A program made the position numbers and the translations under genes. A stretch of DNA of 64,000 nt, from the NCBI RefSeq assembly GCF_016026235.1, contig NZ_CP065613.1; one strand, 5' to 3'. The notes beneath the pieces were generated by a model that saw only the letters and a list, made by a program, of their open reading frames with translations, was not told the origin of the DNA and searched no databases. Positions 16,238 to 35,676 of the stretch are shown in pieces; position 1 is the first letter of the stretch, and every line of letters begins with the position of its first letter. Origin of the DNA: Escherichia coli. GTDB lineage: Bacteria > Pseudomonadota > Gammaproteobacteria > Enterobacterales > Enterobacteriaceae.

Positions 16238-16367
16238 AGTGTGGTAGAATATCAGCTTACTATTGCTTTACGAAAGCGTATCCGGTGAAATAAAGTCAAC
16301 CTTTAGTTGGTTAATGTTACACCAACAACGAAACCAACACGCCAGGCTTATTCCTGTGGAGTTATAT

Positions 16368-16697
16368 ATGAGCGATAAAATTATTCACCTGACTGACGAC
16401 AGTTTTGACACGGATGTACTCAAAGCGGACGGGGCGATCCTCGTCGATTTCTGGGCAGAGTGGTGCGGTCCGTGCAAAATGATCGCCCCGATTCTGGATG
16501 AAATCGCTGACGAATATCAGGGCAAACTGACCGTTGCAAAACTGAACATCGATCAAAACCCTGGCACTGCGCCGAAATATGGCATCCGTGGTATCCCGAC
16601 TCTGCTGCTGTTCAAAAACGGTGAAGTGGCGGCAACCAAAGTGGGCGCACTGTCTAAAGGTCAGTTGAAAGAGTTCCTCGACGCTAACCTGGCGTAA
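16368..16697 (+). CDS. trxA: thioredoxin 1
   Basis: ATG at 16368 inside track ORF; [37 protein letters not shown] (WCGPC active site), 109 aa. Confidence 0.97.
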
Positions 16698-21870: not shown

Positions 21871-23129
21871 GTTTTGCGACCATTTCTGTTATCGGACTGG
21901 GTTACATCGGGCTGCCTACAGCAGCAGCGTTTGCCTCACGGCAAAAACAGGTGATTGGTGTCGATATCAACCAACACGCGGTTGATACCATCAATCGTGG
22001 CGAAATCCATATCGTCGAACCTGATTTGGCGAGCGTAGTAAAAACTGCCGTAGAAGGCGGTTTTTTACGAGCGAGCACGACGCCAGTTGAAGCGGATGCC
22101 TGGCTGATTGCTGTACCCACGCCGTTTAAAGGCGATCATGAGCCAGATATGACCTACGTTGAATCGGCTGCTCGCTCCATTGCGCCAGTGCTGAAAAAAG
22201 GCGCGCTGGTGATCCTTGAATCCACCTCGCCGGTGGGGTCAACCGAGAAGATGGCAGAATGGTTAGCAGAGATGCGTCCGGATCTCACTTTCCCACAGCA
22301 GGTGGGCGAGCAGGCGGACGTCAACATTGCTTACTGCCCGGAACGCGTGTTACCGGGCCAGGTTATGGTCGAGCTGATTAAAAACGATCGCGTGATTGGT
22401 GGTATGACGCCGGTTTGTTCGACCCGCGCCAGCGAACTGTACAAAATTTTCCTCGAAGGTGAGTGTGTCGTCACTAACTCGCGGACGGCGGAAATGTGTA
22501 AGCTCACCGAAAACAGCTTCCGCGATGTGAATATCGCTTTTGCTAATGAATTGTCGCTGATTTGTGCCGATCAGGGGATTAACGTCTGGGAACTGATTCG
22601 CCTGGCGAATCGTCACCCTCGCGTTAATATTCTTCAGCCTGGCCCTGGCGTGGGCGGTCACTGCATTGCTGTTGATCCGTGGTTTATCGTGGCACAGAAC
22701 CCCCAGCAGGCGCGGCTTATCCGTACCGCGCGCGAAGTGAACGATCACAAACCGTTCTGGGTTATCGATCAGGTGAAAGCGGCGGTGGCTGATTGCCTGG
22801 CGGCTACCGATAAACGCGCCAGTGAACTGAAAATCGCCTGCTTTGGTCTGGCGTTTAAACCGAATATTGATGACCTGCGCGAAAGCCCGGCGATGGAAAT
22901 CGCTGAACTGATCGCCCAGTGGCATAGCGGCGAAACTCTGGTTGTTGAGCCTAACATCCACCAGTTGCCGAAAAAACTGACCGGGCTTTGTACTCTGGCG
23001 CAGCTTGACGAGGCGCTGGCAACGGCAGACGTGCTGGTGATGCTGGTCGATCATAGTCAGTTTAAAGTTATCAATGGCGACAATGTCCATCAGCAGTATG
23101 TCGTCGATGCCAAAGGAGTCTGGCGCTGA
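21867..23129 (+). CDS. wecC: UDP-N-acetyl-D-mannosamine dehydrogenase
   Basis: 420-aa [25 protein letters not shown] (Rossmann GxGxxG); 4-bp overlap with wecB. Confidence 0.95.
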
Positions 23130-24196
23130 TGAGAAAAATTCTGATAACAGGTGGTGCCGGGTTTATTGGCTCGGCGCTGGTGCGTTATATCATCAACGAA
23201 ACGAGCGACGCGGTGGTAGTGGTCGATAAGCTGACCTACGCCGGAAACCTGATGTCGCTGGCACCGGTCGCGCAAAGCGAGCGCTTTGCCTTTGAGAAAG
23301 TTGATATCTGCGATCGGGCAGAACTGGCACGCGTATTCACTGAGCATCAGCCAGACTGTGTCATGCATCTGGCAGCCGAAAGCCATGTTGACCGTTCTAT
23401 TGACGGCCCGGCAGCGTTTATTGAAACCAACATTGTCGGGACTTATACATTGCTTGAAGCGGCGCGGGCTTACTGGAATACGCTGACGGAAGATAAAAAA
23501 TCAGCGTTCCGTTTTCATCATATCTCCACCGACGAAGTATATGGTGACCTGCACTCGACGGATGATTTCTTCACCGAAACCACGCCGTATGCGCCGAGCA
23601 GCCCTTATTCCGCGTCAAAAGCCAGCAGCGACCATCTGGTGCGCGCCTGGCTGCGGACCTACGGTCTGCCGACGCTTATCACCAACTGCTCGAATAACTA
23701 CGGTCCTTACCACTTTCCGGAAAAACTGATCCCGCTGATGATCCTCAACGCGCTGGCGGGTAAACCGCTGCCGGTATATGGCAACGGGCAGCAAATCCGT
23801 GACTGGCTGTATGTGGAAGATCACGCCCGCGCGCTGTATTGCGTGGCGACCACCGGGAAAGTCGGTGAAACCTATAATATTGGTGGTCACAACGAGCGTA
23901 AGAATCTCGATGTTGTGGAAACCATTTGCGAGCTGCTGGAAGAACTGGCTCAGAACAAGCCGCACGGCGTGGTGCACTATCGTGACTTGATCACCTTTGT
24001 CGCTGACCGTCCGGGGCATGATCTGCGTTATGCCATTGATGCTTCGAAAATTGCCCGTGAACTTGGTTGGCTGCCACAGGAAACCTTTGAAAGTGGAATG
24101 CGTAAAACGGTGCAGTGGTATCTGGCTAATGAAAGCTGGTGGAAGCAGGTGCAGGACGGCAGCTATCAGGGCGAGCGTTTAGGTCTGAAAGGCTAA
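23129..24196 (+). CDS. rffG: dTDP-glucose 4,6-dehydratase
   Basis: 355-aa [23 protein letters not shown]...; SDR signature YxxxK. Confidence 0.95.
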
Positions 24197-24214: not shown

Positions 24215-25096
24215 ATGAAAGGTATTATCCTGGCGGGCGGTTCCGGCACCCGATTGCATCCGATTACGCGCGGCGTATCGAAGCAACTGTTGCCGATTTA
24301 CGATAAGCCAATGATTTACTATCCGCTGTCGGTGCTGATGTTGGCCGGTATCCGCGAAATTCTCATCATCACTACGCCGGAAGATAAAGGTTATTTCCAG
24401 CGCCTGCTGGGCGATGGTAGTGAGTTCGGTATCCAGCTGGAATACGCCGAACAGCCCAGCCCGGACGGTCTGGCGCAGGCCTTTATCATCGGTGAAACCT
24501 TCCTCAACGGTGAACCTTCTTGTCTGGTGCTGGGCGATAACATCTTCTTCGGTCAGGGCTTCAGTCCGAAGCTGCGTCATGTTGCGGCGCGCACGGAAGG
24601 GGCGACGGTATTTGGCTATCAGGTGATGGACCCGGAACGCTTTGGCGTGGTGGAGTTTGACGACAATTTCCGCGCTATCTCGCTGGAAGAAAAGCCAAAA
24701 CAGCCGAAGTCAAACTGGGCGGTGACCGGGCTTTATTTCTACGACAGTAAAGTCGTGGAGTACGCAAAGCAGGTGAAGCCGTCGGAGCGTGGTGAACTGG
24801 AGATTACCTCCATCAACCAGATGTACCTCGAGGCGGGCAACCTGACCGTTGAACTGCTCGGGCGCGGATTTGCCTGGCTGGACACTGGCACTCACGACAG
24901 CCTGATTGAAGCCAGTACCTTTGTGCAGACAGTAGAAAAACGCCAGGGCTTTAAGATTGCCTGCCTGGAAGAGATCGCCTGGCGTAACGGCTGGCTCGAT
25001 GACGAGGGTGTGAAGCGTGCTGCCAGTTCATTAGCGAAAACTGGCTACGGCCAATATCTGCTGGAGTTACTTCGTGCCCGTCCGCGCCAGTATTGA
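24215..25096 (+). CDS. rffH: glucose-1-phosphate thymidylyltransferase
   Basis: 293-aa [21 protein letters not shown]... Confidence 0.95.
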
Positions 25097-25748
25097 GCCA
25101 CTAACCTGGGAAAACGCCTTCTTTGGTGTTAACAGCGCCATCGTGCGCATTACGTCTGAAGCACCGCTCCTGACGCCAGACGTGTTAGCGCCGTGGTCAC
25201 GGGTGCAGGCCAAAATTGCGGCATCAAATACGGGTGAACTGGATGCCCTGCAACAGCTGGGATTCTCCCTGGTAGAAGGTGAAGTTGATTTGGCACTACC
25301 CGTGAACAATGTCAGTGATAGTGGTGCTGTAGTGGCACAAGAGACCGATATTCCCGCATTACGTCAGTTAGCCAGCACCGCATTTGCGCAAAGCCGTTTT
25401 CGTGCGCCGTGGTATGCGCCTGACGCCAGCGGACGCTTTTATGCACAGTGGATTGAAAATGCCGTGCGCGGCACCTTTGATCATCAATGTCTGATTTTAC
25501 GTGCGGCGTCCGGCGGTATTCGCGGTTATGTCTCTTTACGGGAACTCAATGCGACAGATGCGCGAATTGGCCTGCTGGCTGGACGCGGTGCAGGTGCTGA
25601 GCTGATGCAAACGGCGCTAAACTGGGCGTATGCTCGCGGTAAAACAACTTTGCGGGTGGCGACCCAAATGGGCAACACCGCCGCGCTTAAACGATACATA
25701 CAAAGTGGTGCGAATGTAGAAAGCACCGCGTACTGGTTATACAGGTGA
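25074..25748 (+). CDS. wecD: dTDP-fucosamine acetyltransferase (GNAT)
   Basis: Track ORF 224 aa starting GTG at 25074, overlapping rffH by 23 nt; [21 protein letters not shown]...; true start may be further downstream. Confidence 0.8.
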
Positions 25749-25752
25749 TCAC

Positions 25753-26883
25753 ATGATTCCATTTAACGCACCGCCGGTGGTGGGAACCGAACTCGACTAT
25801 ATGCAGTCGGCAATGGGTAGCGGCAAACTGTGTGGCGATGGCGGTTTTACCCGTCGCTGCCAGCAGTGGCTGGAGCAACGTTTTGGCAGCGCCAAAGTGT
25901 TACTGACGCCGTCCTGCACCGCTTCGCTGGAGATGGCGGCGCTGCTGCTCGATATCCAGCCTGGCGATGAAGTGATCATGCCGAGCTACACCTTTGTCTC
26001 CACCGCCAATGCCTTTGTGCTGCGTGGCGCGAAAATCGTCTTTGTGGATGTTCGCCCGGACACCATGAACATCGACGAAACGCTGATTGAAGCGGCGATC
26101 ACCGACAAAACGCGCGTTATCGTGCCGGTCCATTACGCGGGTGTGGCCTGCGAAATGGAGACCATTATGGCGTTGGCGAAAAAGCATAATCTGTTTGTGG
26201 TAGAAGATGCCGCTCAGGGCGTGATGTCCACTTACAAAGGGCGTGCACTGGGAACCATTGGTCATATTGGCTGCTTTAGCTTCCATGAAACCAAAAACTA
26301 CACGGCGGGTGGTGAAGGCGGCGCGACGCTGATTAACGATAAAGCGTTAATCGAACGAGCCGAGATCATCCGTGAAAAGGGCACTAACCGCAGCCAGTTC
26401 TTCCGTGGTCAGGTCGATAAATATACCTGGCGCGATATCGGCTCCAGCTATTTGATGTCCGATCTGCAAGCTGCGTACCTGTGGGCGCAACTGGAAGCAG
26501 CGGATCGTATCAACCAGCAACGTCTGGCGCTGTGGCAAAACTACTACGATGCGTTAGCACCTCTGGCGAAAGCCGGGCGTATCGAGCTGCCGTCGATTCC
26601 CGATGGCTGCTTGCAGAACGCGCATATGTTTTACATTAAACTGCGGGATATTGATGACCGGAGCGCGTTGATTAACTTTCTGAAAGAAGCGGAAATCATG
26701 GCGGTGTTTCATTACATTCCGCTGCACGGTTGCCCTGCGGGGGAACGCTTTGGTGAGTTCCACGGTGAAGATCGCTACACCACCAAAGAGAGCGAGCGCC
26801 TGCTGCGCCTGCCGCTGTTCTACAACCTGTCGCCCGTCAATCAGCGTACGGTAATTGCGACTTTGTTGAACTACTTCTCCTGA
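25753..26883 (+). CDS. wecE: dTDP-4-oxo-6-deoxy-D-glucose aminotransferase
   Basis: 376-aa DegT/aminotransferase-type ORF. Confidence 0.93.
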   Translation: MIPFNAPPVVGTELDYMQSAMGSGKLCGDGGFTRRCQQWLEQRFGSAKVLLTPSCTASLEMAALLLDIQPGDEVIMPSYTFVSTANAFVLRGAKIVFVDVRPDTMNIDETLIEAAITDKTRVIVPVHYAGVACEMETIMALAKKHNLFVVEDAAQGVMSTYKGRALGTIGHIGCFSFHETKNYTAGGEGGATLINDKALIERAEIIREKGTNRSQFFRGQVDKYTWRDIGSSYLMSDLQAAYLWAQLEAADRINQQRLALWQNYYDALAPLAKAGRIELPSIPDGCLQNAHMFYIKLRDIDDRSALINFLKEAEIMAVFHYIPLHGCPAGERFGEFHGEDRYTTKESERLLRLPLFYNLSPVNQRTVIATLLNYFS

Positions 26884-26884
26884 T

Positions 26885-28135
26885 ATGTCGTTGGCAAAAG
26901 CGTCCTTGTGGACGGCGGCCAGTACACTGGTCAAGATTGGTGCCGGGTTACTGGTCGGTAAGTTGCTGGCGGTGTCATTTGGTCCGGCGGGGCTTGGGCT
27001 GGCGGCAAATTTCCGCCAGTTGATTACCGTGCTCGGCGTGCTTGCCGGGGCTGGCATCTTTAACGGTGTAACCAAATACGTTGCCCAGTACCATGATAAT
27101 CCCCAACAGCTGCGCCGCGTGGTCGGCACTTCATCAGCGATGGTACTTGGCTTCTCTACGCTGATGGCGCTGGTTTTTGTGCTGGCAGCTGCGCCAATCA
27201 GCCAGGGATTGTTTGGTAATACCGACTATCAGGGGCTGGTGCGTTTAGTGGCGCTGGTGCAAATGGGGATCGCCTGGGGCAACCTGTTACTGGCGCTGAT
27301 GAAAGGCTTTCGCGATGCCGCAGGTAATGCGTTATCGCTGATTGTCGGCAGCTTGATTGGCGTTCTCGCGTACTACGTCAGTTACCGTTTGGGCGGTTAT
27401 GAAGGGGCGTTGCTGGGTCTGGCGCTGATTCCCGCGCTGGTGGTAATCCCTGCCGCCATCATGTTGATCAAACGTGGTGTCATCCCGTTAAGCTATCTGA
27501 AACCCAGCTGGGATAACGGTCTGGCAGGGCAGTTGAGCAAATTTACGCTCATGGCGTTGATTACGTCGGTGACCTTGCCTGTTGCTTACATCATGATGCG
27601 TAAACTGCTGGCGGCGCAGTATAGCTGGGATGAAGTGGGGATCTGGCAAGGGGTGAGCAGTATTTCCGATGCCTACCTGCAATTTATTACGGCATCGTTC
27701 AGCGTATATTTGCTGCCCACGTTGTCGCGGCTAACGGAAAAGCGCGATATCACCCGGGAAGTGGTTAAATCGCTAAAATTCGTCTTACCGGCAGTGGCGG
27801 CGGCGAGTTTTACCGTCTGGTTGCTGCGTGATTTTGCTATCTGGTTGCTGTTGTCGAATAAATTTACCGCTATGCGCGATCTCTTTGCCTGGCAGTTAGT
27901 GGGTGATGTGTTAAAAGTGGGCGCTTATGTCTTTGGTTATCTGGTGATCGCCAAAGCGTCACTGCGGTTTTATATTCTGGCGGAAGTCAGCCAGTTCACT
28001 TTATTGATGGTATTTGCCCACTGGCTAATCCCTGCGCATGGTGCACTGGGCGCGGCGCAGGCATATATGGCAACTTATATCGTCTATTTTTCTCTTTGTT
28101 GTGGCGTGTTTTTACTCTGGCGTAGGCGGGCATGA
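26885..28135 (+). CDS. wzxE: ECA lipid III flippase
   Basis: 416-aa polytopic membrane ORF; cluster position. Confidence 0.9.
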
Positions 28136-32981: not shown

Positions 32982-33058
<77 letters not shown>

Positions 33059-33115
33059 TTTAGTCCCGGCGCTTGAGCTGCGGTGGTAGTAATACCGCGT
33101 AACAAGATTTGTAGT

Positions 33116-33192
33116 GGTGGCTATAGCTCAGTTGGTAGAGCCCTGGATTGTGATTCCAGTTGTCGTGGGTTCGAATCCCATTAGCCACCCCA
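33116..33192 (+). tRNA. hisR: tRNA-His (anticodon GTG)
   Basis: GGTGGCTATAGCTCAGTTGGTAGAGC...TTAGCCACCCCA, including the extra 5' G typical of tRNA-His. Confidence 0.95.
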
Positions 33193-33212
33193 TTATTAGA
33201 AGTTGTGACAAT

Positions 33213-33299
33213 GCGAAGGTGGCGGAATTGGTAGACGCGCTAGCTTCAGGTGTTAGTGTCCTTACGGACGTGGGGGTTCAAGTCCCCCCCCTCGCACCA
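33213..33299 (+). tRNA. leuT: tRNA-Leu (anticodon CAG)
   Basis: 87-nt long-variable-arm tRNA GCGAAGGTGGCGGAATTGGTAGACGCGCTAGCTTCAGG...CTCGCACCA. Confidence 0.95.
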
Positions 33300-33341
33300 C
33301 GACTTTAAAGAATTGAACTAAAAATTCAAAAAGCAGTATTT

Positions 33342-33418
33342 CGGCGAGTAGCGCAGCTTGGTAGCGCAACTGGTTTGGGACCAGTGGGTCGGAGGTTCGA
33401 ATCCTCTCTCGCCGACCA
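33342..33418 (+). tRNA. proM: tRNA-Pro (anticodon TGG)
   Basis: CGGCGAGTAGCGCAGCTTGGTAGCGCAACTGGTTTGGGACCAG...CTCGCCGACCA. Confidence 0.95.
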
Positions 33419-35468: not shown

Positions 35469-35676
35469 GGTAGATGCTCATTCCATCTCTTATGTTCGCC
35501 TTAGTGCCTCATAAACTCCGGAATGACGCAGAGCCGTTTACGGTGCTTATCGTCCACTGACAGATGTCGCTTATGCCTCATCAGACACCATGGACACAAC
35601 GTTGAGTGAAGCACCCACTTGTTGTCATACAGACCTGTTTTAACGCCTGCTCCGTAATAAGAGCAGGCGTTTTTTT
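35469..35676 (+). ncRNA. glmZ: GlmZ small RNA (activator of glmS translation)
   Basis: GTAGATGCTCATTCCATCTCTTATGTTCGCC... through terminator hairpin GCCTGCTCCGTAATAAGAGCAGGCG + T7; matches recalled GlmZ sequence and its position upstream of hemY. Confidence 0.85.

Follow-up and report, generated by a model that had tools for sequence, protein, structure and literature searches.

In bacterial operons the commonest overlaps between adjacent genes are of 4 nt (ATGA) and 1 nt. The described protein closest to the one considered here is WecD (RffC) of Escherichia coli K-12, and the primary paper on its structure is reportedly that of Hung et al. (2006, Journal of Bacteriology). Two Protein Data Bank entries, 2FS5 (apo) and 2FT0 (acetyl-CoA complex), hold the enzyme, listed as TDP-fucosamine acetyltransferase, as the full 224-aa form behind a short tag. 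K-12 WecD is known to transfer an acetyl group to dTDP-Fuc4N (PMC7439462). Residues 3-69 together with residues 219-224 make up an ordered, partial GNAT domain at the N-terminus, and residues 70-218 form the C-terminal GNAT domain (PMC4964394). The same review of GNAT enzymes describes the roles of the AGRGAG loop, of A196, and of the catalytic Tyr208.

The DNA analysed here (the window) is a stretch of 64,000 nt from E. coli, and the region around the feature under study is the wec/rff operon for enterobacterial common antigen (ECA), with all genes on the plus strand. The gene order, in the window as in the RefSeq annotation, is rffG (23129-24196), rffH (24215-25096), wecD (25074-25748), wecE (rffA, encoding an aminotransferase; 25753-26883), and wzxE (26885-28135). 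rffH and wecD overlap, and the other junctions are tight, with gaps of 18, 4, and 1 nt. rffH (rmlA-ECA, named rfbA by PGAP) encodes a glucose-1-phosphate thymidylyltransferase of 293 aa, called from its open reading frame, from RefSeq, and from the RmlA/RffH family model TIGR01207, which matches residues 2-286 with 534 bits; the final seven codons form a tail that the RmlA family profile no longer covers. wecD (rffC) encodes the 224-aa dTDP-4-amino-4,6-dideoxy-D-galactose (dTDP-fucosamine) N-acetyltransferase, as judged by RefSeq, by the structures, and by the NCBIfam equivalog NF008212, whose score of 355.1 bits exceeds the cutoff of 219 and whose profile aligns with residues 1-224 through its positions 1-231 (of 232). 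The older model TIGR02382 (wecD_rffC) also passes, with 321 bits for a cutoff of 195. The names wecD and rffH, proposed in the initial annotation from the DNA alone, are therefore confirmed by NF008212 and TIGR01207. Pfam PF13302 and PF00583 (GNAT) match WecD residues 89-208, and the protein carries the acetyl-CoA loop AGRGAG at residues 169-174, A196, and Y208, as expected of a C-terminal GNAT domain of this kind.

The WecD protein of the window closely resembles its K-12 counterpart: 221 of 224 residues are identical, the two proteins have the same length and the same N-terminus, the acetyl-CoA loop, A196, and Y208 are present in both, and the genes occupy the same operon position between rffH and wecE. 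Because the identity amounts to 98.7%, we infer that the WecD of the window would have the same acetyltransferase activity as the K-12 enzyme. The differences are three strain-level substitutions in the window protein, A37V, A102T, and D148G, the first of which creates an extra in-frame GTG at 25182 that is missing in K-12.

The start of wecD lies within rffH. The 3' end of rffH reads CGT GCC CGT CCG CGC CAG TAT TGA, with the stop codon TGA at 25094-25096, and the wecD start codon GTG at 25074-25076 enters the first of these Arg codons at its second base. The two-frame region of 23 nt (25074-25096) thus superimposes wecD codons 1-8 on rffH Arg-Ala-Arg-Pro-Arg-Gln-Tyr-stop. In the wecD frame the open reading frame is bounded upstream by a TAG stop codon at 25032-25034, 14 codons 5' of the GTG, and only the near-cognates CTG (25041) and ATC (25056) lie between the two, so that the longest frame has GTG 25074 as its earliest canonical start; from the TAG to the codon for W12 it is also the sole ATG, GTG, or TTG. 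The 23-nt overlap, the origin of the longest frame inside rffH, and the presence of in-frame starts further downstream had all been stated in the initial annotation, and all three descriptions hold. The downstream codons are GTG at residues 24 (25143-25145), 37 (25182), 44 (25203-25205), and 77 (25302) and TTG at residue 73 (25290); the earliest in-frame ATG within wecD is the codon for the protein's only internal methionine, at about residue 178. From these observations the initial annotation had drawn a start-site ambiguity, and it is this inference that the evidence below qualifies. Very probably, translation of wecD starts at GTG 25074 and yields a two-domain enzyme of 224 aa with the corresponding native N-terminus. 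The support for this start is comparative and structural. RefSeq/PGAP already begins rffC at exactly GTG 25074, overlapping rfbA (the same gene as rffH), and NF008212 uses the same start, so the feature is an ordinary and already known one.

A Shine-Dalgarno element, GGAG, lies at 25063-25066 within rffH Leu-Glu codons, separated from the GTG by a spacer of 7 nt. The predicted duplex with the anti-Shine-Dalgarno sequence at GTG 25074 has an energy of -5.9 kcal/mol, the best among the seven in-frame GTG and TTG codons scored and the 12th strongest among the 224 wecD codons. The six other candidates gave -2.8, +0.4, -2.2, -4.6, -1.5, and -2.8 kcal/mol; residue 24 accounts for a value of -2.8, residue 44 for -2.2, and TTG 25290 for -4.6.

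If GTG 25074 is the functional start, both it and the Shine-Dalgarno element should be visible as constraints on the 3' end of rffH in other species. We scanned DNA from a single genome of each species for a pattern of the rffH C-terminus in which the start codon and the base preceding the GA of the Shine-Dalgarno element were set to N. The scan yielded 53 species from four families of Enterobacterales, including Escherichia, Salmonella, Citrobacter, Klebsiella, Kluyvera, Leclercia, Lelliottia, Providencia, Moellerella, Sodalis, and Rahnella, all with the 23-nt geometry, although these counts do not represent independent events, since the species are related to one another and were selected for a conserved C-terminus of rffH. 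Because the same 23-nt geometry recurs throughout the 53 species, the overlap is not a matter of chance, and it has also been called in Salmonella, in Klebsiella, and in an orthologue with 53% identity. The position of the wecD start, left unspecified in the pattern, is occupied by GTG in 46 of the 53 species and by ATG in the remaining 7, and by nothing else. In the seven species with ATG the overlapping rffH Arg codon is replaced by one for His, Asp, or Asn; rffH therefore pays with an amino acid change, and the wecD start codon is kept.

The third codon positions of rffH allow the demands of the two genes to be told apart. Across positions -29 to +1 relative to the wecD start in 45 complete orthologues, only two wobble positions are fixed: -11, the G of the GGA core (44 of 45 species), and +1, the T of the start codon (45 of 45). 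The remaining rffH wobbles vary in the same orthologues; those that are synonymous drift freely, and the one at -8 toggles between Glu and Asp. As judged by aligned sequences, the wecD start codon and the core of its Shine-Dalgarno element are shown to be under selection on top of rffH coding. Looking for frozen wobble bases in an upstream gene may serve as a general test for an embedded start codon. Downstream of the overlap, the mean entropies at the first, second, and third codon positions are 0.64, 0.67, and 1.37 bits for residues 9-23 and 0.64, 0.53, and 1.35 bits for residues 73-224, and this signature, being the same as that of the gene body, shows that the sequence directly 3' of the GTG behaves as protein-coding DNA in the wecD frame.

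The most conserved motif of the N-terminus, W12-E-N-A-F-F, is encoded at 25107-25124, 5' of every alternative start. W12, F16, and F17 are invariant in 45 of 45 close species. HMMER was run exhaustively against 1.84 billion cluster representatives and returned 58 proteins at an E value of 1e-30 or lower, and in full-length relatives with 30-56% identity their own residues 1-12 align to residues 1-12 of WecD. The pattern W-x-[STN]-x-F-F is found in 99 of 103 full-length representatives in this identity range, at residues 6-21 with a mode of 12. Conservation accordingly extends from residue 1 of the long form. This outcome of an ortholog alignment had been set beforehand as the observation that would speak against the start-site ambiguity, and the claim fails on it; the solved structure (2FS5/2FT0) also covers the 224-aa form.

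Some of the distant relatives lie at loci that lack the overlap with rffH, and it is these loci that separate conservation of the wecD N-terminus, at the level of sequence, from constraint imposed by rffH. At one of them (L007; 43% identity to the WecD of the window) there is no rffH; a spacer of 171 nt with the element AGAGGA precedes an ATG homologous to the GTG of the window, and the protein begins M-L-L-R-G-S-L-D-T-L-T-W-E-S-E-F-F. At two others wecD follows a different upstream gene: in L005 (56% identity) with a 1-nt overlap and an ATG one residue earlier, and in L006 (47% identity) with a 4-nt overlap and a GTG. A fourth locus (L002:2248-2560; 54% identity), on a metagenome contig from Enterobacterales, has lost rffG and rffH by deletion: what is left is a 48-codon stub of rffG and, after it, the final ~16 codons of rffH (TRYGQYLQELLRGYSRKR*), with GGAG and GTG kept, and the deletion ended just before the wecD ribosome-binding site.

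These loci also bear on a non-canonical start close to the GTG, at CTG 25041, ATC 25056, or ATT 25092 (Ile7). All three codons are in the wecD frame, and ATT 25092 is invariant (I7 in 45 of 45 species), which could be read in its favour; this invariance, however, follows from the overlapping Tyr and stop codons of rffH (TAT TGA). No suitably spaced Shine-Dalgarno element accompanies any of the three, and in orthologues that lack the overlap the first codon is an ATG homologous to the GTG. We regard a start at any of these codons as exceedingly unlikely.

The downstream codons do not behave as starts across species. Residue 24 is encoded by GTG in 14 of 47 species, residue 37 by GTG in 2 of 47, residue 44 by GTG in 23 of 47, and residue 73 by TTG in 7 of 47, and the codons at residues 24, 37, 44, 73, and 77 all drift through non-start codons, so that none is conserved as an internal start. 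GTG 25143 (Val24) was rejected as the start on its species count and its weak duplex, and GTG 25182 and TTG 25290 (L73) were rejected on their species counts. The GTG at residue 37 is strain specific, since the E. coli protein that was crystallised (2FS5/2FT0) carries Ala37, as does K-12.

GTG 25203 (Val44) is the start used in an older annotation. If it were the true start, WecD would be a protein of 181 aa, essentially the GNAT domain alone. A protein of exactly this form was found by exact-sequence look-up under AAN45301.2, AAP18897.1, ABB68264.1, and ADE89987.1, entries that come from Shigella flexneri, from S. boydii, and from some genomes of E. coli; TIGR02382 opens at residue 44, and the Pfam GNAT matches lie downstream of it. 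Against these records, the codon is GTG in fewer than half of the 47 species, and GTA (15), GTT (3), and GTC (1) are found in its place, along with others. Because these codons are common there, what is conserved at position 44 is a valine, not a start codon. Its Shine-Dalgarno match is poor, protein-level conservation of residues 1-43 reaches down to 30% identity, these residues belong to the ordered domain in 2FT0 (PMC4964394), and published mapping of alternative initiation sites lists no in-frame alternative for wecD (PMC9825163). A start at Val44 thus has next to no probability.

The structural evidence concerns the N-terminal region as a whole. 2FS5 and 2FT0 match residues 2-224 of the WecD of the window with an E value of 5.9e-143; the protein in the crystals was recombinant and tagged, and it shows that the N-terminal domain folds and not where translation starts in the cell. 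A WecD started at V24 or V44 would miss part of this folded domain. The 224-aa form was found by exact-sequence look-up on at least 1,000 contigs, and the 201-aa (V24) form only among automated calls in Logan/ENA. The ambiguity raised in the initial annotation is therefore a real one in database records, where 181-aa and 201-aa forms and a family model beginning at residue 44 coexist with the long form, but conservation and structure give it no place in the biology. For modelling or cloning of WecD, the 224-aa form from GTG 25074 should be used, since the 181-aa and 201-aa versions miss part of the folded N-terminal domain, including W12-E-x-x-F-F. The significance of this result is mainly one of housekeeping, and it advances no open question.

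Records also err in the opposite direction. Gene callers place the start in S. bongori, Klebsiella, and Kluyvera at an ATG nine codons upstream of the GTG, giving proteins of 233-234 aa that begin MANxYW. This ATG arises from the synonymous TAC/TAT wobble of an rffH Tyr codon at -26, where C and T are found in 22 and 23 species, respectively; in the window the corresponding codon at 25047-25049 (-27 to -25) is ACG and not ATG. Because the C/T wobble at -26 switches the upstream ATG on and off, there is no sign of selection on the extension, which is an out-of-frame reading of rffH YGQYLLELL, and the 233- to 234-aa proteins are probably over-extended.

It could also be supposed that two starts are used, the 224-aa enzyme being accompanied by a minor, shorter isoform from residue 24, 44, or 73. 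In-frame GTG and TTG codons are present, TTG 25290 is preceded by a moderate Shine-Dalgarno-like AAGGTG with the duplex energy given above, and E. coli commonly shows internal initiation at a low level (PMC9825163). wecD resembles genes with internal initiation of the speA/mrcB type in having in-frame GTG and TTG codons within its first 90 codons; it differs from them in that these codons are not conserved as starts, lack a good Shine-Dalgarno element, and correspond to no listed initiation peak, and that at residue 37 is absent from K-12 altogether. The complete table of alternative initiation sites from INRI-seq and Ribo-RET (Table S3, which spans roughly -30 to +150 nt around starts) contains no in-frame internal site for wecD, and +69, +108, and +129 are unlisted for this gene both in vitro and in vivo (PMC9825163). 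Dual starts therefore seem very unlikely, and we give an equally low probability to a minor, truncated WecD consisting of the GNAT domain only and made from an internal GTG or TTG.

The sole wecD entry in Table S3 is a weak, out-of-frame CTG at -13 (6.6 CPM, 2 of 5 replicates, absent in vivo) (PMC9825163). This CTG (25061-25063) is the codon for Leu283 of rffH and lies in the rffH frame, and it was treated as noise. A large number of Table S3 entries are concentrated between -12 and -15 relative to annotated starts (PMC9825163), and these may be a systematic shadow and not real sites. The supplements of the TRAINSPOTTER N-terminomics study, searched for wecD, rffC, and P27832, contain none of these names, and a literature search on the wecD start codon returned nothing relevant.

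With GTG 25074 as the preferred start, the arrangement can be compared with known coupled pairs of genes. rffH and wecD overlap on the same strand and out of frame, the start codon and Shine-Dalgarno element of wecD are embedded in the upstream reading frame, the operon is tightly packed, and the geometry is shared across families; the start and Shine-Dalgarno element are kept against synonymous drift of rffH (53 of 53 species, with -11 and +1 fixed). The difference lies in the length of the overlap, which at 23 nt is longer than is typical, if unremarkable, and more distant wecD orthologues have 4-nt or 1-nt overlaps with other upstream genes, as described above. The ribosome-binding site of wecD, GGAG plus GTG, would thus be written into the last codons of rffH, and it is the run of rffH seven codons past the conserved RmlA core to its stop that would create the conserved out-of-frame overlap. 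Initiation would proceed through the Shine-Dalgarno element, with ribosomes that either start de novo or have finished rffH ~20 nt downstream (translational coupling), and coupling would tie the synthesis of WecD to that of the other dTDP-Fuc4NAc pathway genes of the operon. Coupling of rffH and wecD in this tightly packed operon is plausible.

To look for a hairpin that might couple the two genes by covering the Shine-Dalgarno element and the start codon, we folded 25034-25123, and the region proved no more structured than shuffled sequence (z = +0.95). Because this region is unstructured and because the locus with the rffG-rffH deletion keeps the site without an intact rffH, the data suggest that the wecD start site can work independently of rffH. 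That the overlap serves as a device to fix the ratio of RffH to WecD output is a highly improbable reading.

A 1-kb query across the junction (24800-25800) matches 5,425 of 5,426 complete E. coli genomes. Only 5,304 of the 5,425 reach at least 80% coverage, and ~2% match only part of the query; in strain LB19b, only bases 1-485 are covered. This suggests that wecD is interrupted or rearranged in some E. coli strains. In a protein collection clustered at 90% identity, RfbA/RffH (293 aa) and WecD (224 aa) share a single cluster of 6,944 members whose representative is RfbA. The mixed cluster presumably reflects an artefact of the clustering, in which a fused or frameshifted reading frame may have acted as the bridge; such a cluster could mislead annotation that relies on clusters. 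Elsewhere in the window the RNA features are those expected for the region: a cluster of tRNA genes for Arg(CCG), His(GTG), Leu(CAG), and Pro(TGG) at 32982-33418, the small RNA GlmZ (218 bits) at 35470-35676, the trxA 5'-UTR thermometer at 16298-16397, and a match to the Rfam family "Rev39 5' UTR" at 898-1187.
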